From an uncultured bacterium (GTDB lineage: Bacteria; Abyssobacteria; SURF-5): a stretch of DNA of 64,000 nt. The number at the start of each line of letters is the position of its first letter. The stretch's first letter is position 1. Below are positions 3,647 through 54,700 of this stretch, piece after piece. Location: positions 49,441-113,440 of the forward strand of contig CAZSKP010000014.1 in NCBI GenBank assembly GCA_964607485.1, written 5' to 3'. The notes under the pieces are model-generated. The model was not told where the DNA came from. It worked only from the letters and a program-made list of their open reading frames with translations, and did not search any database. A program made the position numbers and the translations under genes.

Positions 3647-4870
3647 CTAAGGCCCAATGTCACCAATTTCCTGTTCCCTTTCTTTGGCCCACTCAATTTG
3701 AGAATCCTTGATTCTGGCAGCGACTGTTTCTGCCGCCAAGCGATGGCCTTCCGGCGACCAATGCGGGTCATTTTTCAGGAAGAGAGAAAAGGGTTCGGGA
3801 TGACCACGGAAGATTGGGGTAAGATCTATGCATGGAACGTCCAGGGCGGCGCATACCTCCGCCAGACGTTTTGAGGGGCGGTCCCAGTCGATATCCTCTG
3901 ACTCCGGATCCAACCCTGCATATCTGATACTGATGTCGAATATTTCCCTATCCGCATCCTCTTTTTTTGGAACGTAGAGCACGATTAAGCGTCCTCCACC
4001 TTCCATTGCCGATTCCTTCATGCGTGAAACCAAGAGACGCACCACGTCCCAAGCAAGGTCCATCTCAGGAGAGGGAGGACCATAGATGTCCACTATCGAA
4101 AAATCCATTGCGTCTTTCTTTGCAGGCCCCACTTGAGAAGCATCATCAGAAGGCTGATGCCTTGCCCTCAAAGCATTCGCCCGCCGTTGTAACTCGCGTT
4201 TGTCCTTCAGAATCCTCAGCCGGTACTCAATGAATCCGAATAGCCAGCTGTTATGACGAAACCACTGGGTTATCGGCGAACTGAGCACTTTCTTGACGGG
4301 TCGATTTCCTATCCGTAAGGTACCGTCCTCTGCAATCACGGCCACGGGGCGCGTGCCCTGTTGGTCATCGAAGTTATCCCTGAGGTCGTTCCAGACAAAG
4401 GCAAGCATGGTCAGGTCGGGCTTATATCGCACGCCTTCCATCTGGAGACGCACTAATTCCTGCACAGTGCTATAACCGCTGACTCCCAGGTTGATGGTCT
4501 GAGTGTCAGGAATCAATTCCTGAAGAATCGTGGAAAATGTATCTTCGTTATCCACTCCGAATCCCCACATGAAACTGTCACCCAGCACAACGATGCGTCG
4601 GGTTCCGAGAGGCTTTGCGAAATCTTTCTCGCTGTCCCGGAGCCCCCGGCTGTTGTTAGCTACATGCACGTCGAATCCTCCCGGAAGAAAGAAGCGCGCA
4701 TTAATATTGGGCAAACCCACCCACCCTGCATCAGGGTCGCTGCGGTGCAACTTCGCCGTCGAGATGACCATTATCCTGGGCTTCACAAGTCGTATGGCCC
4801 CTTCCAATATCAACAGGACAAGAATCGTGCTGATGACAACCAACGAAAGACGTTCCACCCACTGTCTCAT
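3647..4870 (-). CDS. Membrane-anchored SGNH/GDSL hydrolase family protein
   Basis: N-terminal TM helix; VLGDSFMWG, NLGVSGYS, WND, DPHWSPEGH motifs. Confidence 0.88.
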   Translation of the reverse strand: MRQWVERLSLVVISTILVLLILEGAIRLVKPRIMVISTAKLHRSDPDAGWVGLPNINARFFLPGGFDVHVANNSRGLRDSEKDFAKPLGTRRIVVLGDSFMWGFGVDNEDTFSTILQELIPDTQTINLGVSGYSTVQELVRLQMEGVRYKPDLTMLAFVWNDLRDNFDDQQGTRPVAVIAEDGTLRIGNRPVKKVLSSPITQWFRHNSWLFGFIEYRLRILKDKRELQRRANALRARHQPSDDASQVGPAKKDAMDFSIVDIYGPPSPEMDLAWDVVRLLVSRMKESAMEGGGRLIVLYVPKKEDADREIFDISIRYAGLDPESEDIDWDRPSKRLAEVCAALDVPCIDLTPIFRGHPEPFSLFLKNDPHWSPEGHRLAAETVAARIKDSQIEWAKEREQEIGDIGP

Positions 4871-4959
4871 AAGCTACGCTATCGTTCTTGTGTCGGTTAG
4901 TGGAAAGGATGTGCTTTTACCGATGATTATTATTGATATTACCGTCGCCATGAGCCTGC

Positions 4960-6819
4960 CTAATCCAACTCGAAGTCCTCTTTCCAATCGTGTGTTTCCT
5001 CCCACGTCGGCTGGGACGATTTGTCGAAGAGGTAATTCTCCATCACGAGGTAATCCATTTCCGTCCGCATGAAACAACGGTAGGCTTCCTCGGGAGTGCA
5101 CACGATGGGCTCGCCGCGCACATTAAAACTCGTATTGATCAGTACCGGGCAGCCCGTGTGTTTCTTGAAGGTATGAACAAGTTCCCAATAGCGTTCGTTG
5201 GTCTCACGATTCACGGTCTGTATTCGCGCCGAGTAATCGATGTGTGTGACGGCCGGGATGTCGGAGCGGCGGTAATAGAGGCGCTCGAAAAGCGGCAGGT
5301 CGTGGTAACCATTCGGCAATGGGTTGAGGCGGTCGGCCCTTACCGGCGCGACGAGGAGCATGTACGGCGAAGGTCGGTCAAGCTCGAAATAGTCTGCGCA
5401 ATCTTCTTCAAGCACGGAGGGCGCGAATGGCCGGAAACCCTCACGATACTTGATCTTCAGGTTGAGTCGCTTTTGCATGTCGGGGTCTCGCGGGTCCCCG
5501 AGGATGCTACGATTGCCCAATGCCCTTGGGCCGTATTCCATGCGCCCCTGGAACCATCCGACAACGTTCCCTGCCGCCAAGAGCCGGGCTACTTCCTCAC
5601 AGAGGAGTCGAAAATCCGGGTAATGGCGGTACGGCGCTTCGAACCTTCGGGCAACGCGCACGATGTCGGCTGAGCCATACTCGGGCCCCAGCAAAGAGCC
5701 TTGCATTTCGTCATGTCCGGGTGTGGGACAGCGCTTCTCATCTTTCCATATGTGCCAGGCCGCCAGCGCAGCCCCCAATGCGCCGCCGGCGTCGCCCGCA
5801 GCCGGCTGAACCCACAGATTCTTGAAAAGCCCGCGGCGCAGCAGCTTCCCATTGGCGACACAGTTGAGCGTCACTCCTCCCGCGAGCGCGATATTATCCG
5901 AGCCAGTCAGTTCAAGTGCCGTGGATGCGAGTCGCAGAAAGATTTCCTCCGTCACGTGCTGTATTGCCAACGCGAGGTCCATGTAGGACTGAGTGAGTTG
6001 GCCATTCAAGGGTCGTGGCGGAATGCCAAACAGTGCCTCCCATCGGTCGTCGTGACACATGGTGAGACCGGTGGCATAGTTGAAGTACTCCATGTTCAAC
6101 AGTATTGACCCGTCTTCGCGCAAGTCAACCAATTCGTCCAGAATCTGTTGCCGATACCGTTTGGTCCGGTCACTCTCCGGGTTGCCATAGGGGGCGAGGC
6201 CCATGAGCTTATACTCGCCGCTGTTGACTCTGAAACCGCAGTAGTAAGTAAATGCAGAGTAAAGGAGCCCGAGAGAATGAGGAAAATGCAATTCCTTGAG
6301 AATCCGAATCTCTTTTCCGCTGCCCTTCCCGATAGTCGTCGTGGCCCACTCTCCTACCCCGTCGATTGTCAAGATTGCCGCTTCCTCAAACGGTGAAGGG
6401 AAAAAAGCACTGGCTGCGTGGGAAAGGTGGTGCTCGGGGAATAATAGCGTTGGGTTGCCGTCACCCAGCTTGGCCAACTCCTTCTTCAAGAGCTGGCGCA
6501 TGAGCAGTTTCTCCTTGATCCAAACGGGCATGGCCGAAAGGAAGCTCTGCAGCCCCTTTGGAGAAAAGGCGTGATAGGTTTCAAGCAGTCGTTCGAATTT
6601 GATGTAGGGCTTATCGTAGAACGCGACGGCGGTCAATTCGGCAGGAGTGACATTCCCCTCCGCGAGCACGTAAGCTGCCGCTCGAGTGGGAAATGAGGCA
6701 TCGTACTTCTTCCTGCTGAAGCGCTCCTCCTGGGCTGCGGCTATGATGTTGCCGTCAATGATCAATGCGGCAGCGCTGTCGTGATAGTAGGCCGATATGC
6801 CCAAAATTGCTGATCGCAT
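4960..6819 (-). CDS. O-carbamoyltransferase (NodU/CmcH/SxtI family)
   Basis: ILGISAYYHDSAA, EHHLSHAASAF, DGVGE, EYKLMGLAPYG, GPRALGNRSIL, NTSFNVRGEP; start moved to MRSAILG. Confidence 0.95.
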   Translation of the reverse strand: MRSAILGISAYYHDSAAALIIDGNIIAAAQEERFSRKKYDASFPTRAAAYVLAEGNVTPAELTAVAFYDKPYIKFERLLETYHAFSPKGLQSFLSAMPVWIKEKLLMRQLLKKELAKLGDGNPTLLFPEHHLSHAASAFFPSPFEEAAILTIDGVGEWATTTIGKGSGKEIRILKELHFPHSLGLLYSAFTYYCGFRVNSGEYKLMGLAPYGNPESDRTKRYRQQILDELVDLREDGSILLNMEYFNYATGLTMCHDDRWEALFGIPPRPLNGQLTQSYMDLALAIQHVTEEIFLRLASTALELTGSDNIALAGGVTLNCVANGKLLRRGLFKNLWVQPAAGDAGGALGAALAAWHIWKDEKRCPTPGHDEMQGSLLGPEYGSADIVRVARRFEAPYRHYPDFRLLCEEVARLLAAGNVVGWFQGRMEYGPRALGNRSILGDPRDPDMQKRLNLKIKYREGFRPFAPSVLEEDCADYFELDRPSPYMLLVAPVRADRLNPLPNGYHDLPLFERLYYRRSDIPAVTHIDYSARIQTVNRETNERYWELVHTFKKHTGCPVLINTSFNVRGEPIVCTPEEAYRCFMRTEMDYLVMENYLFDKSSQPTWEETHDWKEDFELD

Positions 6820-6960
6820 CAGCCACTTAGTTCTTCCCGCACGCTTCGAGCCGTGATTGCTTCCGGGCTGTTCCACATTGTTGCCGATCTTGAGGTACAA
6901 AAAGACAGGGGGATTTTCCTGGGGCAAGTACCACTGGTTCTCTATAAGCGGAAGGCGGCA

Positions 6961-7110
6961 TCAGAATATTGTGTAAATAAAGGGGGCAATCGCCGAGCCA
7001 CTGGTGAGGAGAATCAAGGCGCCGAACAGCAACAGACTCAGAATGATCGGGAGCAACCAGAACTTCTTTCTGACTCTCAGATATCCCCACAAATCGCTCA
7101 GGAGCTCCAT
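6961..7110 (-). CDS. SxtK-like (DUF5989) 49-aa membrane protein
   Basis: Below the ORF-track cutoff. Translates as MELLSDLWGYLRVRKKFWLLPIILSLLLFGALILLTSGSAIAPFIYTIF, with the family-typical RKK.WL.P and APFIYT.F. Confidence 0.9.
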   Translation of the reverse strand: MELLSDLWGYLRVRKKFWLLPIILSLLLFGALILLTSGSAIAPFIYTIF

Positions 7111-7132
7111 AATCTTTTCCCACTTGGAGAAA

Positions 7133-7528
7133 CTAATAAGGTCGTTCGATATCTTCGGGTCCGTATCTATGGTCGCGCGTGGTAAAGACAGAGGTCTTTC
7201 CCTTTTTCCACTGATTCTTCCGCATAAGGTCGGAACCGCCCATCCGCCGCACCGCCCCCAGCGGAGTTACCACTCCGTAAAAGAGCACTGTCAGGACCAC
7301 TCTTGAGACTATCGTACCCATCAGATGGGCAATACCAAACCAGACTTTCGCCGGATAGAAGAAAAGGTTTGGCCACACCATATCAGCTACCAGGAGCAGC
7401 ATCGCCAGAAGCAAGAACCTTGGATGCTCTCCGAAGTAAGCCACGAAAAGGCAAATCAGGACTAATGCCATGCCTGTGTCTTTAGACTGGTCCCGACTTG
7501 TGATTTCGCTCGTGTTCCCTTTTCTCAT
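7133..7528 (-). CDS. SxtJ family membrane protein
   Basis: KDTGMALVL, W.G....MG...SRV.L...FY.VVTP.G...R pattern; adjacent to sxtK-like and carbamoyltransferase genes. Confidence 0.85.
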   Translation of the reverse strand: MRKGNTSEITSRDQSKDTGMALVLICLFVAYFGEHPRFLLLAMLLLVADMVWPNLFFYPAKVWFGIAHLMGTIVSRVVLTVLFYGVVTPLGAVRRMGGSDLMRKNQWKKGKTSVFTTRDHRYGPEDIERPY

Positions 7529-7570
7529 GAAAAGAAAAGTTTCCCCCCTTAGCCGAGGATTTGCGCGTAT

Positions 7571-7600
7571 ATTATATAGAGAGCTTCTGAAGCCTGTCAA
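7571..7600 (-). promoter_or_regulatory. Sigma-70 promoter for the sxtJ-like operon
   Basis: TTGACA-N18-TATAAT on the minus strand. Confidence 0.6.
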
Positions 7601-7859: not shown

Positions 7860-10800
7860 TCAGCTCGATTCATCCTGCGTCCTCGGGCTTGCATTCGAGC
7901 CGGGCGACAGCTCCTCTTTCCACTGCAGATACGTGCTGTAATACTGCAGGATTTCCGATTCACATCCAGAGTCAACGGACGTTCCCTCAGGCTCGATGAT
8001 CTCAATCGCTCCGGCGAATACCTCTCCACTGGAGCCGTTGATGCTGATGGCGTCCGTCTCCCCGAACGCAAGCGAATCGGCCTGCAAAATCCTCGCGTGC
8101 TCGTCGATGATCAGCCCCTGACACCCGGTGATGCACGGCTTGCCCATGCGACGAGAGTTGATTGCCGCGTGGGAGGTCATCCCGCCCTCTCGCGTGAGCA
8201 CGCCCTTCGAGGATGCAATCCCGCCGATGTCCCTTGGAGTCGTGCGGTTCGCTACCAGGATAATGTCCTCGCCTGCCTGGGTTCGGATGATGGCGTCCTC
8301 ACTGTTGAACGCGAGGTGGCCGGTGGCCACTCCCGGCGATGCGGGATTTCCCTTCGCAAGCAAATGTCTCGATGCGCTCGGGTCGAACATGGGGAGAAAA
8401 AGCTGTCTGAGGCCGGTCTCGTCGAGCCTCCCGACGGCTGTCTGCTGGTCAATGATACCTTCGTTGGCAAGCTCGACTGCAATTCTCAAAGCCGCCAAAT
8501 CCGTCCGCTTCGCCGGCCGCGTCTGGAGCAGATAGAGCGCATTCCCCTCGACCGTGAACTCGATGTCTTGCACGTCGCGCAAGTGCGCCTCGAGCTTGCG
8601 TGCCACCGCCTCGAGCTCGCGAAACGTTTCCGGAAAACGATGTTCCAGCGAGAAAGAGGGGTCTGTGCCATCGCGTGCCGAGCTCAGCGGCAGCGGTTCG
8701 CCGTGGCCGCACACCAGCACCTCGCCTTGTGAACGCGGCAGATACTCTCCGAAAATTTGGCGGTCTCCGGTTACGGGATTGCGCGAGAAGACTACTCCCG
8801 AGCACGATTCCGGGCAGAGGTTGCCAAACACCATCTGCTGGATGGTGGCCGCCGTGCAGAACTGGTGGGGGATGTTGAAAATCTGGCGGTAAGTGATGGC
8901 GCTGTCGCTCTGCCATGACAAGAATATCGCTCTGAGCGCCCCCATGAGCTGTTCTCGCGGGTCCTGCGGGAGGGGAGCGCCGATGGCGTCCGCAACTCTC
9001 TTCAACAGGGTCTTCACCATCCGTTTCATCTCTTCCGCGGACGCGCACGCCGGATTACTCTCGGCAAGAGCCGGCTCGCGCGTGTCGGAATAGCCCATGA
9101 CGGAGGAGGCGTACTTTGATATCAGCCTGAAATAGCACTCGTACGCAAACAGAGAGTCACCGGTGATATGGGCCAAACCTTCGACTGTTTCGTCGTTAAG
9201 CCCAATATTCAAGACGGTGTCCAACATCCCCGGCATTGAAACGCACGCGCCCGCCCGCACCGCCAGCAGAAGCGGCTTCTCCGGAGAGCCGAGCCTGCAC
9301 CCGGTGATTTCTTCCAGCTCCTCGATGCTCTCGGACAGGAGCTTCTGGGTGCGGTTACACAAGACATGGCCGTCGGAGAAGAACATGTTGCACACTTTCG
9401 ATGTGAGCGTAAACCCGGGAGGCACATTCAGCCCCAGCCGGGCCATTTCGGCAAGGAATGCGCCTTTCTCCCCCAGTATCGGGTAATGCGCCACCTGCCC
9501 CTCGGCTGCTCCCGGCCGGAAGAAATAGGCGAGTTTGGCCGGGTCAACCTTTTTAGAGATTGCGTCCAGGTCGCGCCTGATTCGGGCCACCTTAATGGCG
9601 GAGATTTCCCTGATGGGCGGATGACGCACGCGCTTCATGAACTCGGCGATGCGCGCGCGAGAGAAATTGAGCAGCCTCAGCGTAAGCTCGGAAAGATGTT
9701 GCAGCGTCGTCTCGCGGAATAGGCCGTCCACGAACGCGCTCGCCGCCTCGTCGGCGTGCGGAATCTGGCGTGACGAAAGAATTTCGCGCGTGGTATCGTA
9801 ATAGGTCTGAACGATCTTGTCCGTCGCCGCTCCTATCTCGGCGTTGATACGCTCGACGATCGAATAGACGGTATAGAAGTTGAGGTCGCTCGATTCCTTG
9901 AGCGCGAGGAGCTGCCTGCCGTAGTCTCTGATTTTCTTCGTGCACTGTCCCTTGGCGCGCACGCTCAAAATCATCGAATGCATCACATCGATGGCCAGCG
10001 GAAGCGCCTCGACCGTGATGTCGGCCAGAATCACATTGCTCGCCTCGCCGTAGATAATGTAGCCGAGACGTTCGAGTGTCAGGTCGAGCCAGATGGCCTC
10101 CAGCGTTACCTCGATTGTCCGCGTTTGAACCAGCGGATTCTTGATTGTGTCGCGCAGCGATATCCGCACCTCGCCGAGCATCAAGGCGGCGTTGAGGATG
10201 TCCCGCGCTCGCAGATACCCGATGAATCGCTCGAGCGATTCGAACAGATGGGGGAAGAAGAGAGAAACCGCCTCGCGCCGCCATGAATCGATGAGGGCAT
10301 GTATCTCCTCCGGCTCCTTTTTGTCTGCGCTTGTCAGCCCGGCCCTCAAGTTCTCGAAAAGTCGTTTGACATTGGGATTCTCTGCGTCGAGAATCGATTC
10401 TTCGAGCAGATTGACGAGAATCTCCACATTGGTTTCAATCAACGATCTGTTCCGCTTCTCGATACTGCCGAGGAGATACCGAAGCTGGCTGTTGACCCGG
10501 GGCGATACAATCTGCGAAATGTTGCTGAGGAGTTGGTATATGTCTTCTACCCGGTCTTCGATGTTCCCCGGATGGGGCTCAAAAACATTTGCGAGTTCCC
10601 TCTCCAGCTCTTTCAACAAGCCGAGTATCGGCTGGAATTTGTCGGGGCGGTACTGAAACACTTTCTGATACTTGTTTATTGCGGTCAGAGGCTCGGAGTC
10701 GGCGTTCTCCACATAGGCGAGGAGCGCTCGCACGAGGTCGAGGTTGCGCGGAGAGAGCTTGCTGTGGATTTCTCCCCTGATATCCTCGGTGATGGGGGAT

Positions 10801-11204
10801 GGGAACGCGTATTCTATCTCTTCGGCGAGCCCGCGCAACGCCCGAATCTCGTCTTGCGACGCGCCGAAGAAGGGCAGGCTCTTGACCAGTTGCCGCACGA
10901 GCAGATACATGTCGTCCGAGGACAGGTCTATGCACATCAGTTCTTCGAGCTTCTCGCGCATCTGCTTCGAGAGCGCAATGCTATCGGCCTTCTCGGCGAA
11001 GCCGCTGCCCCGGTAGCCGGCCAGGCTGCCCGTCTCAACGCGCAGATTCACGTTGAGCGCCTTGATGAGGTCGGTGCTGCCGAGCGGGTCGGAGACAATT
11101 CGCTCGATGCAGGCGAACACCTTCTCCCAGCTATTGATGGGCTCAAACTCTGATTCTTTGACCTCAACACTCATTCTGCCGTCAGATGCTCCCTCAGCGT
11201 TCAT
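7860..11204 (-). CDS. Atypical dikinase: glucan-water-dikinase-like N-terminal region + PPDK ATP-grasp + phospho-His swivel domain, no PEP/pyruvate barrel
   Basis: LGEKGAFLAEM..LGLNVPPGF, VRAGACVSMPGMLDTVLNIG, QQMVFGN, QDIEFTVE..LYLLQTR, GGMTSHAA. The protein stops just after the PPDK linker helix. Alternative start at 11174. Confidence 0.85.
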   Translation of the reverse strand: MNAEGASDGRMSVEVKESEFEPINSWEKVFACIERIVSDPLGSTDLIKALNVNLRVETGSLAGYRGSGFAEKADSIALSKQMREKLEELMCIDLSSDDMYLLVRQLVKSLPFFGASQDEIRALRGLAEEIEYAFPSPITEDIRGEIHSKLSPRNLDLVRALLAYVENADSEPLTAINKYQKVFQYRPDKFQPILGLLKELERELANVFEPHPGNIEDRVEDIYQLLSNISQIVSPRVNSQLRYLLGSIEKRNRSLIETNVEILVNLLEESILDAENPNVKRLFENLRAGLTSADKKEPEEIHALIDSWRREAVSLFFPHLFESLERFIGYLRARDILNAALMLGEVRISLRDTIKNPLVQTRTIEVTLEAIWLDLTLERLGYIIYGEASNVILADITVEALPLAIDVMHSMILSVRAKGQCTKKIRDYGRQLLALKESSDLNFYTVYSIVERINAEIGAATDKIVQTYYDTTREILSSRQIPHADEAASAFVDGLFRETTLQHLSELTLRLLNFSRARIAEFMKRVRHPPIREISAIKVARIRRDLDAISKKVDPAKLAYFFRPGAAEGQVAHYPILGEKGAFLAEMARLGLNVPPGFTLTSKVCNMFFSDGHVLCNRTQKLLSESIEELEEITGCRLGSPEKPLLLAVRAGACVSMPGMLDTVLNIGLNDETVEGLAHITGDSLFAYECYFRLISKYASSVMGYSDTREPALAESNPACASAEEMKRMVKTLLKRVADAIGAPLPQDPREQLMGALRAIFLSWQSDSAITYRQIFNIPHQFCTAATIQQMVFGNLCPESCSGVVFSRNPVTGDRQIFGEYLPRSQGEVLVCGHGEPLPLSSARDGTDPSFSLEHRFPETFRELEAVARKLEAHLRDVQDIEFTVEGNALYLLQTRPAKRTDLAALRIAVELANEGIIDQQTAVGRLDETGLRQLFLPMFDPSASRHLLAKGNPASPGVATGHLAFNSEDAIIRTQAGEDIILVANRTTPRDIGGIASSKGVLTREGGMTSHAAINSRRMGKPCITGCQGLIIDEHARILQADSLAFGETDAISINGSSGEVFAGAIEIIEPEGTSVDSGCESEILQYYSTYLQWKEELSPGSNASPRTQDESS

Positions 11205-14200
11205 CCAGCCCGTCGAGCGCCGACAGCGTCCGCGTCGCCAGATACTTCAAGGCCGCGCCGCCGCCCGTACACAAGGTAAACTTCTCCTTCGCCGCCTCGA
11301 TTCCGCCCATGCGACGATTCACGGCGGCAACTCCGTCGCCGCCGACCACGAGCTTTGCCTTGGCCGGGCACTGCGCGATGGCGTCCACAATCCAGTTTGT
11401 TCCCTCAGCGAATTGCTCCACTTCGTAGAGCCCGACGGTTCCGTTGTAGATGATCGTGCCTGCTTCAGCGAGAATGGCTTGAATCTCGCCCGCCGTCCTT
11501 GTGGCGGCGCCGTCGCTCGCGGCCGCAATATCAAACAGGTATGAACCGAAAGGAATGCTTTCCGCATCAAGAACGCGCGAAGACACTCGCAGGAGCGGCC
11601 TGAACTTGTCGGGCAGCTCGAAGGCAACGTGCACGTCCTTGGGAATCACGACCTTGACGTCGAATTCAGCCGCCAGCTCTATCAGCCTGTGGGCGGCCGC
11701 CACCTCGCGCTCGACCTCGAGCACGTCGGCACCCGAGAGCGAGTTGCCGGCCGACAGGCCGCTCGCAACGAGAAAGGCCGGGGATGCCGTCACAAATGTC
11801 TGAATGGCGCCATGGCGTATCATTGCTTCGACCGCGGGAATCTTTTCGCTTATCTTTACGCCGCTGACGAAAGCGACGACGGGCCGGCTGGCCTCGCGCA
11901 GTATTCCATCGAGAGTTTCAAGCTCGCTCCCCGTCAGCAAACCCAACACTTTATGCCCGTGGACGAGGTTCATCAGCGGCAGAAACGAGGCGTGAAGCCC
12001 GCGATGGGAGGCGCCGAACGCGCTGTTGACATAGTTAACCCGTCGCTGCGAGTCCGGGTCGAGATGGCCGAAGAGCGTGTCAAAAATGGCCTTCGCGAAA
12101 TGCCGATTGCCCGACTCCTCTCCTTCGTGGAAACGCAGATTCTCGAGATAGAGAACCTGACCGGGCCCGAGGCCGCGCGCGAGTGACGCTGTCTGGGCAT
12201 CGACGACGCCGGGCGCCATGAAGAAATCCCTCTCGGGAACAAGGACATTCCGGTCCCGCAGTATTTCGGCGAACCGCTGGCCTGCAATCCTCAAACTGAA
12301 CAGGTCAATGACTTGACCGTCCTCCGTCTGGAGGAACTGGAAATCTCTCTTGCGCCCATTGTGCGACATCACAATGACTCTCGCGTTTCGCTTGATGAGG
12401 TGCGCAATGTCGTCCGCGCTTGCAAATATCCGATGGTCATCGATGATTGAAGGTCTTATGGTGTTGGTGGCCGGGTCATAAAGCGGCTCCACGACGTTAT
12501 GGTCAACCCGTACCATCCAGTACATGCCGTCGAACGCTTCGTCAGGCAGGTCGAGAAGCGAGGATTTCTTTGAATAGGGACTCTCGGATTTCGGGGGCAC
12601 GTCGGGCACATAGGGAAATTGTGTGAAATCCTTCTGGTACGCCTTTTCCGCAGGCAGCATCACTTCTTCGAGGAATTCGACGTACATTTTCGACGGTCGC
12701 CACTCGTTTTCGTACCAGCCGATCAACTGGATGACGGTCATTGGCTCGCCGCTGGGAGCCACGAAATGGACGACCTCGACGTTCCTCTTACACAGCGTTA
12801 CGCCCGCCTCCGCAAGCTCTCGCAGCAGTCTGATTTGCGTTGAGCGGTCGATTTCCTTGTCCCTGAGGAACTGAAATCTCTGATGGTCGCCCTCGCGGCA
12901 TGCATCCTCCAGCACTTTGGCGGCAGCCTCGATATCATCAATCGTGTAATGTCCTCGGAGCACATAGGTGGGAGCCATGATGGAAACAGTTTCTATCGGG
13001 AACCGTATCGAGTACACCGGCGTGTGTGAAGTTCCCGCGGCGTCCACGAGAGCGGTGCTGGCGCTTGCGCCCGACGTCGTCTCGAAGATGTTTCCTGTCG
13101 CGTCGGTGCCGCGCCGTATGTCTTTCTTGTACTCTATCGGGTCGATTATGTCGGGGCCGACGTGCTCGCCGGTGAGCGCGTGATAGGTCGGCCCGATTCC
13201 CTCGAGCACCATTGCGCCGGCAACCTCGTAGAATCCGTTCCAGTCAAACCGGCCCTCCTCGGCGCCGCGGTGCATTGCCACCTCGACGAGACGGTTCAGA
13301 TTGGCCAGACATCCAGTCGTGCACGAGGCCGGGGAAAGAAAGTAATGCTTCGCGGGATCATACTTGTGGTCATTGATGTGCCTTATGAAGGTGGCATCGC
13401 GCCACTCGTCTTCCTTGCTCGAGCCGGGCGCGGTGATCATTGCCCGCAGGGCGCCGGCGCGCCTGTGGCGGTTGACGCCGTCCAAGTTGTTGAAGCGGCC
13501 AGTCGCATCTATGGCGACGTGTACAGGCATCCCGGCCAGTATGAAGCATTTCCACGGATAGTTCGCCGGGTCTCTGAATACCGGGTGGCTGAACACGAGC
13601 GATCGCTTCCCGTCCAGCTCAATCCAATCACGACCGTATTGAACGGTGCCCGGATAGCGACCCTGAACATAATCCTTCTCGTTCATCAGCTCGGCGAGGC
13701 GCTTGGCATCGGGGCCGCCCACCGCGATGACGCGCAGCGTGTCGCTCTTCGAGGCTATGCGGAACGTGCAGCTTCCCATGCGGCCGCCCGGAGCGTTGAT
13801 GGTGATGTTGTACACTCCCGGCAGTGAGGGATACAGTATCGAGTTCGGCCTGCTGATGGTCTGCCATCGCTGTCGCTGTCCATCATACTGGTCGATCGAC
13901 AGAAAGGTCACCCGGTCGAAGAGCTCCGTCTTCTCGTTGTAATCCAGGTGATGAACCCGGATGGTCGCCCGGAGCTTGTCGCCGTATTCGTATACATCAT
14001 GTATCAGTATTTCCCAGTCGTATTCGCGGCTGAGCCGGAGCGCGTATTTGCGAAGCGCATCGTAGTATCGCCCCATCACATGATGCACATTCTCAAGCGA
14101 CGCGGCGGTGAGCAGCGAAGTCGCGTACAGCTTGTGCCGGTTCTCGTGGAGCGCGACCATCGCGACAGCCTCTCCCGTCTCGTCACGCAAAACCTCCTGC

Positions 14201-16482
14201 AGGATGATAGGCTGCGACTCGAGGAAGAGCAGCCTCACAGCGTCCTCGGTCAATTCGCGGTCGGATACGCGGATCGTGCCCGTGCCCCCCATGGAGCCTG
14301 CGTACATGCGGGCTCGACGTTTCGTGGCGTGCGCCTGCGTTTTCTGTTCATACTTCCGGGCAAGACGCGGGATGTGACGCTTTGAAAAGTCGGTCTGTTG
14401 AGCGATGTCAAGCTTTGCCCAGTGACGGCTTGCCGCGGGCATACCCGGCGTGAATGTGTCAGCCCTCTCTCCGAGCTCTCGCTTAAGAGAATGGCCGGCG
14501 ATGAGGCGCAGCGCTTCCTCGACATCCGCCACAGCCTCGTCGAGGAAAAAGGCGATGCTCACCTGGGTGCCGGCATCGTTCTGGCTGACATAGACCTGGT
14601 TAGGGTCGAACATAATTCTGGAACTTCCGAAATTGAGATTCGAGGTCAACTGCACCCACCATTCGGGCAGGCTGAGCACTTCAAGTTCCTGCGCTTTCGC
14701 CTTGAAGAGCGAGATTATCCTCTCTCGCGAGAGCCTCGAATCGACCACCGCGTTCAAGCGGAGAAGCTTGCCGCGCGGAATATTCGTCTTGAATTCGTTA
14801 GTGGCGAGCAGCTTTGTATCATCACCGGCCAGCCCCAGCATCCTCGCCACACCGGCGAAGCGCTTCGGATTCTTCTTATGGATGACCTGGTACACTCCGG
14901 CTACTCTGTATGTTGGCTGGACAACTGCCGGTTCGTCATGCTTCTCGACAATATCGGCTCCCAGCACAAAGATCTTCCCCATCTCGGAAAGGGCGGATAT
15001 CCCGAGCGCATACGCAACTTCTTCGGCAGGCATGATGCCGAACGCGCTTCTTCCTTCAGGGTATTTCTCATTTAAGAGGGAGTGGACGGTCGCATCGTCA
15101 CTTGTCTGTGTCCGAGCGACAACAAGTTGTGCCCCTTCTTTACGAATACGCTCCAGTAACTGCGGCTCAATCTTACGAGCGTGATCTTCGCTGATGAGGA
15201 TATAGTCGATGCCCAAAGCCTTCCAGGGAAGGGACTCAAGAACGGCCGGCGCTTCGGTCAGGCTCCCGTGATACACACTGATGGCAGATTTCTGTTTGCC
15301 GATAGAAAGGAAGCCTTTCTCATCACCCTCGACCTCTTCATAGATTCCAAGCTGCGAGTTGTACTTCAGCCACTGCATAATGTCTTTGGCTTTCTGCCCG
15401 ACAAAGACCACTGCCTCCAGCTCATTGACATACGCGCTGCCGATCCTGCGCAGAGCGGCGATAATGTTCTGGTTGTATCCGACAACCGCAATCCGGCGCG
15501 GTGCGTTTCCGGGTGAGAGATGCGCCAAGATACGGGAACGAATGGCCGCAAGATGTCCGGCCTCGAGCTCGAGGAAGGGCGATTCCGAAAGTCTGAACAC
15601 ATCGTAGAATTCATTCATCCCCGGAACAAACTTCGCTAACTCATCCAGCGAGCGCTTCCTCTTTTCGGGATCCCTCTGAAAACGATCCAACTGAGCGAGA
15701 AGCCTGTCGATTTCGCGAACTTCCGTTACCGGCGCTATCCTCATCCCTCGTTGCTCAATCAGTGCACGAACCGCGTCAAGCGAGGGATGGCCCACCTCCT
15801 CCATAACGTATGCTTCCTCGGAAAGTTCGGGGGTTTGCTTCTCGACTCTTCTCGCCATCGCGGCGAGTGCACCCGACCGAGCCTGCATGTTAAACATGAA
15901 CGAAGCTGCTTCCGACAGAATTCCTTCAGGCACGTGTCGATGAACACTGGGACGATTGAAGTCGTCACAGAACTCGGCGAAAAGATGGTAAACGCCGTCT
16001 TCGCCGTCAAATATGTTCGTCCCGTATGCCGCCTTGAACTCCTCTGCAAGAGCTTCCTCCCCGATTCCTTCCCTCGCCATGAACTCCCGGAGCCCGGAGT
16101 GGAGAAGGGGAAAGAGTTGGAGGCGTCGCGCCATCCACTCGACACCTTCGTGAACGAGCGTCCGGTTCAATACGCGGCGGCGACGATGCTGAAAGCTTTC
16201 GTTCGAGTTTTGAGCGGTTATCTCTGAGCGACAGATCCATTCGAGGAAGGAGTACGTGTCGAGGACATCGGAATAGATGATTCCCTGATTGTCGGCGAGT
16301 GTCGCTATAGGGAATTGTTCGAGGGCTGGTGCGAGATCTATGTCTTGAAGCGCCGGGTCGGCGCGCGCAGCTGTCTCCACAAGTCGATGAATGTAAGTTG
16401 AAGAGGGCCGGTGCAAAATTATCGGTATCTGAGAGAAGCCTTCGGGACGGGCGAGAAGCTCGGGTGGGCTTGGCAAAAGCAT
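11194..16482 (-). CDS. Giant fusion: unknown domain + degenerate GAPDH + linker + divergent GAPDH + phosphoglycerate kinase
   Basis: GAPDH motifs IDATGRF, ASCTTGCLA, YHALT, TTSGA, WYENEW. PGK motifs RVDHNV, SHNGR, LENLRF, AFGASHR, TGGGAAL. Start set at ATG 16482 with GAGGAG RBS. Confidence 0.88.
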   Translation of the reverse strand: MLLPSPPELLARPEGFSQIPIILHRPSSTYIHRLVETAARADPALQDIDLAPALEQFPIATLADNQGIIYSDVLDTYSFLEWICRSEITAQNSNESFQHRRRRVLNRTLVHEGVEWMARRLQLFPLLHSGLREFMAREGIGEEALAEEFKAAYGTNIFDGEDGVYHLFAEFCDDFNRPSVHRHVPEGILSEAASFMFNMQARSGALAAMARRVEKQTPELSEEAYVMEEVGHPSLDAVRALIEQRGMRIAPVTEVREIDRLLAQLDRFQRDPEKRKRSLDELAKFVPGMNEFYDVFRLSESPFLELEAGHLAAIRSRILAHLSPGNAPRRIAVVGYNQNIIAALRRIGSAYVNELEAVVFVGQKAKDIMQWLKYNSQLGIYEEVEGDEKGFLSIGKQKSAISVYHGSLTEAPAVLESLPWKALGIDYILISEDHARKIEPQLLERIRKEGAQLVVARTQTSDDATVHSLLNEKYPEGRSAFGIMPAEEVAYALGISALSEMGKIFVLGADIVEKHDEPAVVQPTYRVAGVYQVIHKKNPKRFAGVARMLGLAGDDTKLLATNEFKTNIPRGKLLRLNAVVDSRLSRERIISLFKAKAQELEVLSLPEWWVQLTSNLNFGSSRIMFDPNQVYVSQNDAGTQVSIAFFLDEAVADVEEALRLIAGHSLKRELGERADTFTPGMPAASRHWAKLDIAQQTDFSKRHIPRLARKYEQKTQAHATKRRARMYAGSMGGTGTIRVSDRELTEDAVRLLFLESQPIILQEVLRDETGEAVAMVALHENRHKLYATSLLTAASLENVHHVMGRYYDALRKYALRLSREYDWEILIHDVYEYGDKLRATIRVHHLDYNEKTELFDRVTFLSIDQYDGQRQRWQTISRPNSILYPSLPGVYNITINAPGGRMGSCTFRIASKSDTLRVIAVGGPDAKRLAELMNEKDYVQGRYPGTVQYGRDWIELDGKRSLVFSHPVFRDPANYPWKCFILAGMPVHVAIDATGRFNNLDGVNRHRRAGALRAMITAPGSSKEDEWRDATFIRHINDHKYDPAKHYFLSPASCTTGCLANLNRLVEVAMHRGAEEGRFDWNGFYEVAGAMVLEGIGPTYHALTGEHVGPDIIDPIEYKKDIRRGTDATGNIFETTSGASASTALVDAAGTSHTPVYSIRFPIETVSIMAPTYVLRGHYTIDDIEAAAKVLEDACREGDHQRFQFLRDKEIDRSTQIRLLRELAEAGVTLCKRNVEVVHFVAPSGEPMTVIQLIGWYENEWRPSKMYVEFLEEVMLPAEKAYQKDFTQFPYVPDVPPKSESPYSKKSSLLDLPDEAFDGMYWMVRVDHNVVEPLYDPATNTIRPSIIDDHRIFASADDIAHLIKRNARVIVMSHNGRKRDFQFLQTEDGQVIDLFSLRIAGQRFAEILRDRNVLVPERDFFMAPGVVDAQTASLARGLGPGQVLYLENLRFHEGEESGNRHFAKAIFDTLFGHLDPDSQRRVNYVNSAFGASHRGLHASFLPLMNLVHGHKVLGLLTGSELETLDGILREASRPVVAFVSGVKISEKIPAVEAMIRHGAIQTFVTASPAFLVASGLSAGNSLSGADVLEVEREVAAAHRLIELAAEFDVKVVIPKDVHVAFELPDKFRPLLRVSSRVLDAESIPFGSYLFDIAAASDGAATRTAGEIQAILAEAGTIIYNGTVGLYEVEQFAEGTNWIVDAIAQCPAKAKLVVGGDGVAAVNRRMGGIEAAKEKFTLCTGGGAALKYLATRTLSALDGLDER

Positions 16483-16589
16483 AATCGCGCTCCTCAGATG
16501 TAACACGCCTATACTTTTGGCAGCACAATACTTATGCAATCCGCGTCACAACCTGAAAGGTGGGAGCGAACAGAATTCAGCCTACGGTA

Positions 16590-16618
16590 ATTTTACCCTC
16601 ATTTCCGAGAATAGTCAA
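16590..16618 (-). promoter_or_regulatory. Sigma-70 promoter for the GAPDH-PGK/dikinase operon
   Basis: TTGACT-N17-TAAAAT on the minus strand, about 110 nt before the start. Confidence 0.6.
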
Positions 16619-16768
16619 CGGCGGGCCGGCGACAGGCTTATGGTGTGGAGGGTACTTGACTTGTGAAGGGACTCCTCTCATTGTGGCACTGTTTTTCAGG
16701 AGGCAAGTCACCCCACTGAGGAGGGTAAACGTTGCACCTGTTGCTGGATTAGACTGAGCTCGTCACGA

Positions 16769-51757: not shown

Positions 51758-54700
51758 TTATGTGTTGCTATCCACAGATGTTGCCAGCATGTCTGCTATA
51801 TATTCATCTGCATCAACGAGAGCTTGGCTCCTAAGCCAATGAAGCTTTTCCCTGGGTTTAAATAGATATGTGAACCGACCGTCAGCGTCATAGACCCTCA
51901 GGCTTTTGTTAAAATAGAGCCACTGACCTCGCCCCTCCAGTACTTTTTCTCGATTATTCCTGTTCCACTCATCAACCTTTTCAACTCTAACTGGGATTTC
52001 CGAGATACTTTGAGAAAGCGTTATCTTTACAACTGCCTCCATATTAGAGTAAAAAATCTCTATAGAATGTCTATCTATTGTTTGACCGCCAAGGAACAAT
52101 TCTAGTTCACTTCTCAATACTCTCCCATATTCAAACATTTCCTTCTTGCTGGCAGGTGACAACAATTCGTTGGGAATTCTTCCTTCATTCAACTTGCTTC
52201 GAGCACGAAGCAAGTCATGGATGAGCCAACGCTCTGTGTGTTTCAGCCCGAGCACGTCATATACCTGTCTGTTCAGTGATTCGAGCAGGCAGTCTGTTGG
52301 AGTGCTAGAAGAAGAGGCTGATTCAAATAAGAATCCTTCTCCTTTATCTGATCTTTGTTGCATTTTTGCAAGCTCGTCGTACAATCCTGCCCATTTTGCA
52401 ATTTCGTCTGGTGTCAGCTTGTCAATTGGAACTGGAATCTTTTCAAGGTCTTTCTTCCGAGGATTGTCACGTTCGATTCCCAATACAGTGAGAAGGAATT
52501 GGTGATAATACGCAAAATCTGAACTTAGGTATAGAGCAAGGGCTTTCAGCAGATCAATTTGTGCGGGATCGCCAGCAATCCCAACCTTCCGGGGAGGAAC
52601 CAATATGAATTCGTTGGAGAACACCGCGAACCTTCTCGATTCATCAACGATTACATGCGGAGGTTTGCATATTCTTAGCGCCTTCTCGCCACGACCTTTT
52701 CGCGCGTAATGTAATGACATATCAATGGTTTCCAAAGCCTGATCTGGGAATCTGAAGATCTTTCCCAGCCCCCTAAGCTTTGTCATATTAAGCTTAAGCG
52801 CATTCTTTCTTCTTATGGCTTGCGGGAAAGGCTCAAGCTTTTCGAACAGAGATTCGGGATCATCCCTATTCTCCCCAAGCTCATGGTCGAGTTGCTTGGG
52901 CGATCTTAATTTGCGTAGTTGCGGGCCCTCGCGAATCTCCAATTGATGCTTTTCTCCAAAACTCTGCAACGAAGGGAACCGCGCATCGAGGGATATCAGA
53001 AGATGCCTATCTCGTGGAGAACCCCACATGGCAATCTTCCAAGGAGCCTGACTGCCTGTCTTGGCATCAGCAACCGGAATTTCCCTGATTTCGTCGGCGC
53101 TTATGCTGATAGCCCATGTTGTTCTATTGCCTTTGGAACTGCGACTTGTCAGTTGGTTAATGGCAAACGGTGCGTAGGTCAAGATGGTTTCTGTACGGGA
53201 GCTGTTGTCGAGTTTCGGTAGTGAGTAAAAGAAAACTGAGGCGGGACTGATAGCATCCTTGAATAGAACATGCCGAAGATTGGCGAAGTTCACGACACAC
53301 CATACACTCATTCTTTTAAAAAACTCACGCCGGAACGATTCGCCTCTGGTTTTAATAAGCGTTGTGGCAGGCATTAGAAGACCAATTATGCCCTTCTCGG
53401 AAACATATTTTGTGACCTCCCAGGCGAAAGCCTCGGCAATTTGATTATACGAGACCGGAAAAGATTTTTTATTTTTCCTAATCCAATTGAGTGCGGTCTT
53501 GTCAGCCTTTCCCGTTCTATTAGATTCCAAGTTTTCCAAGCTGAGTTCTTTCCAAGGTGGATTACCCACAATCCAGTCGAATCCACTTTTCGGCTTCTCT
53601 TTTTCCCATTCAGGACCAGGCGCAAAAAATCCCTCCTCGCAGTGGAAAACGTTCTTATTTCTTAGCACCGGAAGTCTAAAGGTGTAATAGCCACGCTTTT
53701 CCAAATCAGGAGGCTTGACATAATCCAGCAAACTCATAGTAAGACTAAGTTCTGTAATACCACAGGCGTCTGCGTCAACGTCCATTCCATAAATATGATT
53801 TGTAAGTAGTTCACGCAATTCTGTGGGCTGGAGATAATTATTCGTTGCGGACCTGAGTTCGCGCTCCACGAGTCTGCGATAACATTGCACGAGAAAGGCG
53901 CCGGAACCACATGCAGCGTCGAACACCTTCATCCCTCTTTCAAGAGGCTTTTTGCTATCGAGTTCGTCGAGAATGAGGTTCACTAGGTGAAGTGGCGTAT
54001 AGTAAGCGCCGGACCTTCGACCCGTACCTTCAGCATGCAAGAACTGCTGGTAAACAACTGATAACGTCTCAATTGGGATATGCGCGAAATCATAGGCCTT
54101 GAAGTCCAAATGCATTTGACCGGAAGCTGGATCATCACCCTTGAATGCGGATGCAACTTTCCGAATATGGTCAATGGTTGGAGCGTCTTTCCCTTCAAGA
54201 GAAACAGGAAAAATCGAGCCATTCAACCAATCATTGAGTTCCTTTAAAATCTGCCGAAGTCCCTTTTTTGTGGCATTGCGGCCAAATACGGAATCTGGAT
54301 GGATATGCCATTTATTCAACTTTTCATCAGAAAGAATATCTCTGTCTCTTAAATAATGAAGATAGACATATTGGCCAATGAGCGAATGCGCGATGTTTCG
54401 TACTAAATTATCTTTCAGCAGACAAGAGCCAAGCTGATTGAGATTGCGAAGGAGGGTCCAGTCCACCCTGCCCTGTGGATCAAGTCTGTGACCCCATTGG
54501 GGCCAGATTTCACCATTATCAATTGACTCGGCCTTGAATGCTCCGAACTTCTCTAATACATCATCTGCACTCTTTTCGGCTGTACAAATCGCCTGATCTC
54601 TGTCATTGAAATACATTTTCGGATCGAATTTGAAGCCCAAGTAAAGCCGTATCGATCTCTGGGTCAAAACGAAAAGGAAAGGCACAATATTTTGGTTCCA

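Follow-up and report, generated by a model that had tools for sequence, protein, structure and literature searches.

Two adjoining genes on the minus strand of a contig from an uncultured sediment bacterium, referred to here as genes A and B, constitute a conserved chromosomal two-gene module whose members are paralogues of the genome's housekeeping genes (gap, pgk and ppdK). Gene A encodes a GAPDH-PGK fusion whose conserved residues predict catalytic competence, and gene B encodes a PPDK-type dikinase that carries a new helical domain and ends before the pyruvate domain. An AMP/PPi-linked PGK step is the reading that we tentatively propose for the pair.

Gene assignment and local context

The window (the whole stretch of DNA that was analysed, 64,000 nucleotides) contains two long open reading frames at 11194..16539 and 7860..11204. 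On the basis of database proteins and homologue alignments, the start of gene A was revised to 16482 (product P0003) and that of gene B to 11174 (product P0015); therefore, the two genes are adjacent with a spacer of 19 nt, and only when the ATG at 11204 is taken as the start of gene B do they overlap (11 nt). The two large adjoining frames with adjacent ends that the earlier note had described were thus recovered. The features of the locus are as follows.

11194..16482, minus strand: gene A, megafusion P0003 (1762 aa), including the stop codon
7860..11174, minus strand: gene B, truncated PPDK-type protein P0015 (1104 aa), including the stop codon
16590..16618, minus strand: sigma-70-like promoter match TTGACT-17-TAAAAT (10/12 positions), approximately 108 nt ahead of the start codon of gene A

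The single sigma-70-like promoter claimed previously was found as a 10/12 site (16618-16590); since the 10.2 kb scanned contained seven such sites where shuffled sequences gave 3.9 +/- 1.7, it is to be read as a consensus match only. The GC content of genes A and B (0.56-0.60) lies within the range across the window (0.455-0.622), and none of the 15 neighbouring open reading frames scanned (1-32.7 kb) was a mobile-element gene, in agreement with the host-like composition noted before. Misassembly is excluded as the origin of the locus. A Logan contig of 14,858 bp, obtained independently although the source sample may be its origin, showed no differences over 8718-16700, and 10 full-length proteins of different origin share the architecture of gene A.

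Architecture of gene A

Five parts make up the gene A product: its helical N-region is followed by a dead domain of GAPDH fold, then by a small alpha/beta domain, GAPDH and PGK. In the Pfam search, approximately 890 residues without assignment were followed by Gp_dh_N, Gp_dh_C and PGK. The 10 full-length members of the family share 44-89% identity, and the conservation spans the entire length.

15508..16482, minus strand: helical N-region, residues 1-325 (AF2 model mostly helical, pLDDT low to moderate)
14473..15507, minus strand: degenerate (pseudo) GAPDH-fold domain, residues 326-670 (AF2 model and fold matches)
13828..14472, minus strand: long helix and small alpha/beta domain, residues 671-885 (AF2 pLDDT 75-90 for residues 735-880)
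12613..13827, minus strand: GAPDH domain, residues 886-1290 (Pfam Gp_dh_N, 44 bits; TIGR01534, 115 bits)
13321..13323, minus strand: codon of Cys1054, a residue that falls on Cys149, the catalytic cysteine of GAPDH, in the alignment
11197..12534, minus strand: PGK domain, residues 1317-1762 (Pfam PGK, 199 bits)

Residues 1-325 had no family match in Pfam, and in P0014 a different N-region of 640 aa stands in their place. Residues 326-670 matched GAPDH with Foldseek (E 7e-14, TMt 0.56), and with VIA the GAPDH match (Z 16.1, 274-280 residues aligned) exceeded that of ArgC/ASADH (Z ~12). This domain has GYNQN instead of GxGxxG and contains no cysteine, which bears out the extra degenerate domain that had been suspected among the central-carbon domains; the dead copy probably takes the structural role that in ordinary GAPDH falls to a neighbouring subunit on a separate chain. 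For residues 671-885, the Pfam search gave no match, and the sole lead was a weak SnoaL/NTF2-like match (0.80) in the ESM Atlas.

The GAPDH domain scored below the equivalog cut-off of TIGR01534 (115 bits, cut-off 367), whereas the canonical copy of the genome reached 440 bits. SPASCTTGC, H1101, R1123/R1124, R1160 and WYENEW were nevertheless invariant in all 10 members; for this assignment, we take Cys149 and His176 to be the catalytic residues of GAPDH and the arginines to form the anion sites. In the region of the canonical NAD-binding GxGxxG and Asp32, the motif reads NAPGGRMGS, with "VGG-PD" where the canonical copy reads "VND", a difference that does not by itself indicate a cofactor preference.

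The PGK domain matched PF00162 over model positions 6-377 of 379 (199 bits; gathering score, 27). The 3-PG-binding residues, which we take in human numbering to be D23, N25, R38, H62, R65, R122 and R170, were kept in 10/10 family members. The residues for nucleotide binding and transfer (K215, K219, N336, E343, GGD and TGGG; the four single residues are K1543, K1547, N1680 and E1687 in gene A) were likewise kept in 10/10, and therefore this PGK can probably use ADP/ATP like any other. A 10-residue deletion removes GGGMAxTF, and P338 is replaced by T.

The best NCBIfam match of the PGK part was the PGK/TIM model (NF010569, 178 bits), which represents the natural PGK-TPI fusion of Thermotoga. 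A TPI-GAPDH fusion is reported for stramenopiles (PMC3527533). Gene A similarly places on one chain lower-glycolytic enzymes that act in succession or close to each other; it differs from these fusions in having the dead GAPDH copy and approximately 540 further residues, and in being a paralogue rather than the housekeeping enzyme. No natural GAPDH-PGK fusion was found in the literature.

Architecture of gene B

In gene B, approximately 555 residues without Pfam assignment precede PPDK_N (125 bits) and PEP-utilizers (65 bits), and PF02896 (the PEP/pyruvate TIM barrel) was not matched. The limits between the inner domains are set after those of the PPDK structure.

9540..11174, minus strand: family-defining all-helical domain, residues 1-545 (AF2 pLDDT 83, pTM 0.76)
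8505..9539, minus strand: PPDK nucleotide-binding (ATP-grasp) region, residues ~546-890 (PPDK_N; TIGR01828 positions 2-514; 1KBL)
7989..8504, minus strand: linker and phosphohistidine swivel domain, residues ~891-1062 (PEP-utilizers, 65 bits; GGMTSHAA motif)
8169..8171, minus strand: codon of His1002, which presumably carries the phosphate (aligned to the PPDK GGMTSHAA motif)
7863..7988, minus strand: short conserved C-terminal tail, residues 1063-1104 (the chain ends where the PPDK PEP/pyruvate barrel would begin)

Residues 558-1062 align to positions 9-514 of Clostridium symbiosum PPDK (1KBL) with E 9e-118. With PPDK (TIGR01828, EC 2.7.9.1; 1KBL/1DIK), gene B shares the ATP-grasp and the swivel domain with its GGMTSHAA motif, at ~45% identity to bacterial PPDKs over this half, and His1002 was invariant in the 25 family members aligned. 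In contrast to PPDK, the PF02896 barrel is missing, the TIGR01828 match stops at position 514 of 865 and the chain ends 42 residues later, a helical N-domain of 545 aa is added, and the score (538 bits) is below the equivalog cut-off of 843. Since the pyruvate domain is absent, a non-pyruvate acceptor would be required, as the earlier note had supposed.

The helical-domain profile had only 30 matches among 1.84 billion representatives, and PDB fold searches returned generic helical bundles, nothing specific. Across 104 domains, R94, R114, E118, D131, R133, H137, S141, D364, K408, R487, T489 and E496 were invariant or nearly so.

PEP synthase, GWD, rifampin phosphotransferase and phenylphosphate synthase work on the same principle: a swivelling histidine receives phosphate from the ATP-grasp domain and passes it to a substrate that an exchangeable module selects; to our knowledge, none of them uses a PGK module or a helical domain of the gene B type. 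The description of gene B as glucan-water-dikinase-like was not upheld. GWD has the reverse domain order (phosphohistidine before the C-terminal nucleotide-binding domain) and carbohydrate-binding modules, whereas gene B has PPDK_N before PEP-utilizers and PPDK-type sequence, and no carbohydrate-binding module was detected in its N-domain by Pfam at E up to 5. The all-helical model of this N-domain likewise gave no specific fold match.

Recurrence across genomes

Within the host genome, canonical gap and pgk adjoin on one contig (C15) and a full ppdK (1430 bits) lies on another (C35), so that the pair is a dedicated module and not an ordinary gap-pgk-ppdK locus. Among 11 genomes of the phylum (relatives of Candidatus Abyssobacteria), three had the A/B pair, the two genes lying 19, 19 and 4 nt apart between flanks that are unrelated; outside the source genome, the genomes with the pair are G009 and G010, and a fourth contig was assigned by an indirect match. 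Wherever the loci were readable, gene A was accompanied by gene B (3/3 genomes, plus the contig with the indirect match). Three outcomes had been named beforehand as speaking against the module, i.e., genes never adjacent elsewhere, a misassembly, and the genome's only gap/pgk, and none of these was found.

Adjacency is not universal. Gene B was present in 6/11 phylum genomes, and gene A was absent throughout in three of these (G004, G007 and G008; 92-97% complete); a metagenome locus (L028) also has gene B without gene A. In the tree of gene B, copies with and without gene A are interleaved, and at least three changes are needed. It follows that gene B, occurring in genomes without gene A, does not need the PGK of gene A. 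The pairwise identities of A and B track each other in six pairs (88/89, 65/65, 67/69, 66/65, 67/71 and 62/65).

The host genome also encodes a membrane H+-PPase (848 bits) beside the full PPDK, and no soluble PPase of family I or II was found in it (97.5% completeness); the organism appears to conserve PPi. Two-component genes adjoin several of the loci examined. No glycogen or glucan genes were found beside any of them.

Dikinase-PGK fusion relatives

Fourteen distant matches to the N-domain profile of gene B were scanned; dikinase domains were present in 12 and PF02896 in none, and in two a PGK domain lay directly behind the phosphohistidine domain. A search with one PGK-bearing relative gave PF01326, PF00391 and PF00162 together in 85 clusters among 92 matches. 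These natural fusions back a functional tie between the dikinase family and PGK, as had been proposed from the locus. The N-domains of gene B and of the fusion branch are homologous (hhalign over 489 columns; probability 99.9, E 1e-37) and have invariant polar residues in common, and the gene B profile matched P0152 with E 1.3e-9. One weak profile match (P0160, E 3e-4) is of GWD type, with GWD1_pHisD ahead of a PPDK_N at the C-terminus.

The fusions (~1400 aa; P0152, P0154 and P0162-P0244) resemble gene B in the homologous helical N-domain, the ATP-grasp, the phosphohistidine and the lack of PF02896. They differ in that their PGK is in the same chain and no GAPDH is present, whereas in the present locus PGK belongs to gene A, which lies upstream and also carries GAPDH and pseudo-GAPDH; their dikinase halves are only ~27% identical to gene B. 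The fused PGK occupies the slot behind the phosphohistidine domain, which is the slot of the PPDK acceptor domain. In the 78 fusion PGK domains, the 3-PG site was largely kept (D23 in 78, N25 in 78, R38 in 70, H62 in 77, R122 in 77 and R170 in 78), while the ATP/transfer residues were kept in only 31-39; K215 was kept in 31 and lost in 47. The 47 proteins without K215 form a derived clade with the 3-PG site kept, which suggests that after the fusion the ATP site was dispensable and the 3-PG site was not. As K215 is catalytic, these 47 probably cannot make ATP, and the "local ATP generation" suggested by the earlier note fits poorly with them. R65, the 3-phosphate ligand, is D or E in 78/78 domains, and K215 is D or E in 43; these acidic positions could equally be compatible with a sensor domain. 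Gene A, in contrast to the fusions, keeps R65 and the ATP-site residues, and its PGK forms a long branch of its own outside the fusion clade (in a three-group tree, which cannot be rooted). No conserved neighbour genes were found around eight fusion loci.

Proposed reaction and alternatives

In the mechanism that we propose, the half-PPDK of gene B would charge its swivelling histidine with ATP and Pi, the new helical domain standing in place of the pyruvate/PEP domain, and the phosphohistidine would exchange phosphate with 3-PG/1,3-BPG held on the PGK domain of gene A (ATP + Pi + 3-PG <-> AMP + PPi + 1,3-BPG; we infer both the transfer and its direction). The fused GAPDH would interconvert the labile 1,3-BPG and glyceraldehyde-3-phosphate on the spot, and the pair would carry out the PGK step in an AMP/PPi-linked form, which would relate to ordinary PGK as PPDK does to pyruvate kinase. 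We hold this to be a real possibility, at somewhat less than even confidence. It is favoured because the fusions in 85 clusters tie the dikinase family to PGK, because their PGK takes the acceptor-domain position of PPDK and keeps the 3-PG site while the ATP site is lost in 47/78, and because homology links the N-domains of gene B and the fusions. The adjacency of A and B with matched divergence in all three phylum genomes that hold A, the intact GAPDH/PGK catalytic residues and carrier histidine, and the membrane H+-PPase and PPDK of a host in which no soluble PPase was found argue in the same direction. It is weakened by the occurrence of B without A (3/6 B-holding phylum genomes and L028), by the ATP-site residues kept in the PGK of gene A and the position of this PGK outside the fusion clade in the unrooted tree, and by the lack of a conserved neighbour at the eight fusion loci. 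Further, the invariant Arg/Lys/His/Asp/Glu set of the helical domain could be the real acceptor or effector site, and the R65/K215 changes in the fusions could equally mean a sensor domain.

Such a sensor figures in an alternative that we consider unlikely, in which gene B is a VadK-like autophosphorylating histidine kinase derived from PPDK that binds and tunes lower-glycolysis enzymes (gene A here, ordinary PGK/GAPDH elsewhere), the fused PGK being a 3-PG-sensing or docking module and not a catalytic acceptor. [quoted passage not shown] VadK and gene B are both PPDK-derived, lack the PEP/pyruvate domain and keep the carrier histidine, whereas the VadK partners are methylcitrate-cycle enzymes, not PGK/GAPDH, and its mode of action on them is not settled in that account. 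On the Rv1127c-type model NF004531, gene B (1104 aa) scored 427 bits, just under the cut-off of 456; this model has 534 positions and VadK lacks a counterpart of the 545-aa helical domain. The presence of B without A, the acidic residues at K215/R65 of the degenerate fusion PGKs, which suit a binding domain, and the two-component genes next to several loci accord with a regulatory kinase; the retention of K215 in 31/78 fusions and of other ATP-site residues in 30-39 would be needless for a pure sensor, and with their close coupling in one operon and their matched divergence, A and B resemble the subunits of a single enzyme more.

That gene B is a self-contained dikinase, with the helical N-domain binding an acceptor other than pyruvate, be it a glucan or a small molecule, and GAPDH-PGK giving local ATP or the following steps, is a generalised form of the model in the earlier note and in our judgement quite improbable. 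The invariant polar constellation is what a ligand or catalytic site typically shows, and B without A, the ATP site kept in gene A and the weak match to the GWD-type P0160 are all in line with it, but the gene B N-domain has no detected carbohydrate-binding module or fold, its dikinase domains follow the PPDK and not the GWD order, no glycogen or glucan genes adjoin the loci examined, and 47/78 fusion PGKs were probably unable to make ATP. We find it slightly less probable still that A and B are co-regulated yet mechanistically independent, A serving as an alternative fused GAPDH-PGK (e.g., for gluconeogenesis or with another cofactor) and B doing an unrelated job. Gene A has all that is needed to act alone, the flanks are not conserved, and half of the B-holding phylum genomes have B alone; the separate dikinase-PGK link by fusion, the tight spacing with matched divergence, and the fact that A was never seen without B in readable loci speak against independence.

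Implications

Returning to the AMP/PPi-linked step, the broader claim that the A/B pair and the single-chain dikinase-PGK fusions together represent a new activity, a "3-phosphoglycerate, phosphate dikinase" in which the phosphohistidine docks on a PGK module, is one that we regard as doubtful but worth stating. If true, glycolysis/gluconeogenesis would gain a third PPi-linked step in addition to PPi-PFK and PPDK, and in this organism it would be hard-wired to GAPDH, so that 1,3-BPG would never leave the complex. The fusion relatives suggest an undescribed route for moving phosphate on or off 3-phosphoglycerate.

Gene limits and integrity of the locus

Two long ORFs are listed on the minus strand of the region (11194..16539 and 7860..11204). 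The gene starts were set by the recorded proteins and by homologue alignments, and the following features were obtained.

11194-16482, minus strand: gene A, start at 16482, 1762 aa (P0003)
7860-11174, minus strand: gene B, start at 11174, 1104 aa (P0015)
16618-16590, minus strand: sigma-70-like match TTGACT-17-TAAAAT, about 108 nt 5' of gene A

At the junction, the TGA stop of gene A is followed by GGGAG, a 19-nt spacer and the ATG of gene B. The earlier note had described the ends as overlapping or adjacent; they are adjacent, and the 11-nt overlap would need a less likely ATG at 11204. The promoter match is weak evidence, because 7 such matches were found in the region (3.9 expected). The GC content of both genes (0.56-0.60) is inside the range of the window and no mobile-element gene was found among the 15 neighbouring ORFs, in agreement with the host-like composition noted before; a mobile or foreign island was rejected on these two grounds. 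Independently, a Logan contig of 14,858 bp that may derive from the source sample matches 8718-16700 with zero differences, and the architecture recurs in ten full-length family members of different sources. Misassembly, which the earlier note had named as a refuting outcome, is therefore excluded.

Other features of the window were also recorded. Just 3' of gene B (3647-7600, minus strand) are genes for an SxtJ-like small protein, a NodU/CmcH-type carbamoyltransferase (655 aa) and a GDSL/AlgX-like SGNH hydrolase, with a 12/12 promoter match at 7600-7571; this set is not kept beside the A-B pair in other genomes. A hybrid histidine kinase gene (1-2727, minus strand; Tll0287-like, PAS, HisKA, HATPase, receiver and Hpt domains) runs past the window edge. 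The lowest GC of the window (0.455-0.514, at 50-56 kb) resembles a small foreign island and holds a 1064-aa MmeI/Eco57I-type methyltransferase fusion (51758-54952, minus strand); a similar 1078-aa gene lies near gene B in another genome of the phylum (G007, L038:6949-10185).

Distribution and pairing of the two genes

The source genome is 4.70 Mb in size and 97.5% complete. It has canonical copies of gap (440 bits) and pgk (535 bits) next to each other on contig C15, and contig C35 carries a full ppdK (1430 bits). The separate copies for which the earlier note had suggested a search are thus present, genes A and B are extra copies, and a housekeeping gap/pgk/ppdK identity was ruled out.

Gene A is rare: 12 clusters were found among 5.8 billion proteins (10 full length), and the scan of the genome collection with gene A gave one locus. 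A relative with 88% identity is on a contig of Candidatus Abyssobacteria SURF_17. Gene A was found in 3 of the 11 phylum genomes (G000, G009 and G010), and in all three it is followed by gene B (spacers of 19, 19 and 4 nt) among unrelated flanking genes. A fourth pair is implied by P0013 and P0018, each on a 157,244-bp contig. Over six pairs, the identities of A run parallel to those of B (A/B: 88/89, 65/65, 67/69, 66/65, 67/71 and 62/65), as expected of two genes passed on as a unit. Gene B is more widespread than gene A, with 22 clusters of its architecture and presence in 6 of the 11 phylum genomes. In G004, G007 and G008, gene A is absent both from the genome and from the surroundings of gene B; the metagenome locus L028 likewise has gene B without gene A, and the metagenome scan with the N-domain of gene B gave a single locus. 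In the gene B tree, copies with and without gene A are interleaved. The adjacency for which the earlier note had suggested a search is seen in all three phylum genomes with gene A, but these copies of gene B lack it.

Domain organization of gene A

In the C-terminal half of gene A, Gp_dh_N, Gp_dh_C (sub-threshold) and PGK (199 bits) were detected with Pfam; the score against the NCBIfam type I GAPDH model was 115 bits, far below the cut-off of 367. GAPDH motifs were judged by alignment to the genome's own canonical enzymes, with residue roles as described for GAPDH and PGK. The live GAPDH domain retains SPASCTTGC, the histidine of TxHxLT, the arginines of RR and IRxP, and WYENEW, each of them invariant in 10/10 members. 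Its dinucleotide motif is unusual (NAPGGRMGS), and 'VGG-PD' replaces the 'VND' of the canonical copy. In the PGK domain, all 3-PG ligands and K215, K219, N336, E343, GGD and TGGG are kept in 10/10 members, and a 10-residue deletion removes the GGGMAxTF segment.

Residues 1-881 were modelled with AlphaFold (pLDDT 61, 11 sequences) and comprised four parts: a helical part (1-325), an alpha/beta part (326-670), a long helix, and a small alpha/beta domain at about 735-880 that is predicted well. The 326-670 part matched GAPDH structures (Foldseek E 7e-14 with a TMt near 0.55; VIA Z 16.1 over 274-280 residues), and ArgC/ASADH scored lower (Z about 12). Where GAPDH has its glycine-rich loop, this segment reads GYNQN, and cysteine is absent throughout. 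It is a dead GAPDH copy, in line with the degenerate domains described in the earlier note. The sequence-profile comparison of the dead and live domains gave E 0.035 only, and the question was settled by the fold match. The dead domain probably pairs with the live one as a second GAPDH subunit normally would. For the other parts of residues 1-881 no match was found, the fold-search lists for 1-325 and 671-881 being filled by GAPDH; the best ESM Atlas score for the middle domain (0.80, SnoaL/NTF2-like) is a lead only. In a profile comparison, neither the N-region nor the middle domain showed a relation to the helical domain of gene B.

Two relatives differ in outline. The most distant, P0014 (2199 aa, 44-47% identical), has a different 640-aa N-region in place of the first ~260 residues, with a hydrophobic signal- or anchor-like start. 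P0013 (1035 aa, from the 157,244-bp contig) diverges from the family after 'RHRRAGALRAM' and stops soon after, a break that looks like a frameshift, in the assembly or in the gene.

Domain organization of gene B

Residues 558-1062 of gene B, with the carrier-histidine motif GGMTSHAA among them, align to residues 9-514 of the 873 of C. symbiosum PPDK (E 9e-118). Only 42 residues follow the aligned part, PF02896 is absent, and the score against the PPDK model was 538 bits (cut-off 843). The description of gene B as glucan-water-dikinase-like was not borne out: its domain content and alignment are of PPDK type, no carbohydrate-binding match was found in Pfam, and a glucan water dikinase was rejected. 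The first 545 residues gave a confident all-helical model (pLDDT 83, pTM 0.76) with no Pfam family and no specific structural relative (best Foldseek E 0.057); VIA gave generic four-helix bundles at Z of 11.4 or less, below noise for helical proteins, and the best ESM Atlas score (0.81) is a lead only. A GWD-type protein, P0160 (1505 aa; GWD1_pHisD, then a C-terminal PPDK_N), weakly matches positions 4-213 of the helical-domain profile (E 3e-4), which may be a distant link of the two dikinase kinds or chance.

Dikinase-PGK fusion relatives

The helical-domain profile matched only 30 proteins among 1.84 billion representatives. Fourteen distant matches were scanned with Pfam: dikinase domains were present in 12 and PF02896 in none, and in two (P0152 and P0154) a PGK domain lies directly behind the phosphohistidine domain. 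In a search with P0152, 85 of 92 matches were clusters with this dikinase-PGK architecture, annotated merely as PGK or PPDK, whose labels include Spirochaetota, Elusimicrobiales and Ozemobacteraceae MAGs. The fusion family consists of P0152, P0154 and P0162-P0244. The fusion is present in 25/87 genomes of the phylum of G284, a genome that has the fusion at L040:12653-16981 and also holds an ordinary PGK. The helical domains of the gene B branch and of the fusion branch are homologous (489 columns, hhalign probability 99.9, E 1e-37), and R94, R114, E118, D131, R133, H137, S141, D364, K408, R487, T489 and E496 are invariant or nearly so over 104 of them.

Most 3-PG ligands are kept in the 78 fusions compared (D23 in 78, N25 in 78, R38 in 70, H62 in 77, R122 in 77, R170 in 78), and R65, a ligand of the 3-phosphate, is D/E in 78/78. 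Nucleotide and transfer residues are kept in only 31-39 of 78: 43 have E/D at K215, 44 have a deletion of the GGGD loop, and TGPR stands in place of TGGG. The fusions form two groups, 31 that keep the PGK ATP site and 47 without K215 that are a derived clade. Since these 47 are derived and the 3-PG ligands persist, PGK could do without its ATP site once fused, and the 3-PG site remained under selection. The PGK tree has three clean groups and is unrootable, and the gene A PGK falls outside the fusion clade.

Neighbourhood and pyrophosphate context

No neighbour is conserved around family members, and at 8 fusion loci neither a conserved neighbour nor a GAPDH was found. Recurring nearby are phosphate-selective porin O/P (L028 and L050), two-component genes (G004, G010, L048, L049, L052 and L054) and anion symporters (Na_sulph_symp (DASS) in L028 and G004; SDF in L051). 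Porin O/P directly adjoins a dikinase-family member in two unrelated loci (L028:3682-5199 and L050:13128-14444). Upstream of the A-less gene B of G004, on the same strand (L037:3101-11389), are five single-domain response regulators, two dCache histidine kinases and a response-regulator/Na-sulfate-symporter fusion. In the source genome, a membrane H+-pumping pyrophosphatase is encoded on contig C29 (1673-3682, 848 bits), no soluble PPase of family I or II was found at 97.5% completeness, and each of the two PFK copies has its best match in the 'mixed' ATP/PPi subfamily. The membrane H+-PPase and PPDK with no soluble PPase found suit a PPi-conserving metabolism.

Proposed mechanism and alternatives

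We read the locus as encoding a phosphohistidine enzyme of the PPDK family whose acceptor module has been exchanged, next to a fused pair of glycolytic enzymes. PPDK has its phosphate acceptor site in the domain behind the swivelling histidine, and PGK, which takes the place of this domain in the fusions, is proposed as the acceptor. The phosphohistidine would be charged from ATP and Pi and would exchange phosphate on the PGK module (ATP + Pi + 3-PG <-> AMP + PPi + 1,3-BPG), in one chain in the fusions and as the same partnership in trans with genes A and B. With GAPDH fused to PGK, 1,3-BPG would be made or used in place. Phosphate exchange between the phosphohistidine of gene B and 3-PG/1,3-BPG on the PGK module is plausible, at somewhat less than even chances, and there is a real chance that the locus represents a new enzyme activity. 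Against it, gene B occurs without gene A in half of the phylum genomes holding gene B, the gene A PGK retains its ATP site, and this PGK is outside the fusion clade in a tree that is unrootable. The invariant charged site of the helical domain could itself be the acceptor or an effector site, and a domain that only senses 3-PG would equally fit the acidic residues at R65 and K215 of the fusions.

Gene B might instead be a regulatory histidine kinase like VadK, a truncated PPDK that, according to PMC13400623, autophosphorylates and binds methylcitrate-cycle enzymes; we regard this as unlikely. Also unlikely, and more so, is the idea of the earlier note in its general form, in which gene B is a dikinase complete in itself, its helical domain binds another acceptor, and PGK/GAPDH give ATP or the next steps; its glucan form has no support in fold, Pfam or neighbour data. 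The alternative given the least weight is that A and B are independent paralogues, co-regulated only.

Significance

PGK counts as an enzyme that always works with ADP/ATP, and PPi-linked variants are known at the PFK and pyruvate kinase steps. No natural GAPDH-PGK fusion, PPi-dependent PGK or dikinase-PGK fusion was found in the literature searched, where the term 'phosphoglycerate dikinase' surfaces in a rice proteomics paper; 'phosphoglycerate kinase', 'dikinase' and 'fusion' are absent from the main text of the Abyssubacteria genome paper (PMC6121073). Even if the exchange reading is wrong, no description was found for a GAPDH-PGK fusion with an internal dead GAPDH copy, for a helical domain of 545 aa whose charged site is invariant, or for the ~110 related protein clusters annotated only 'phosphoglycerate kinase' or 'pyruvate phosphate dikinase'. 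If the exchange reading is true, the dikinase superfamily would gain a new acceptor module, and if the phosphohistidine of a PPDK relative services a PGK module, the ATP bookkeeping of glycolysis/gluconeogenesis would change in energy-limited anaerobes.
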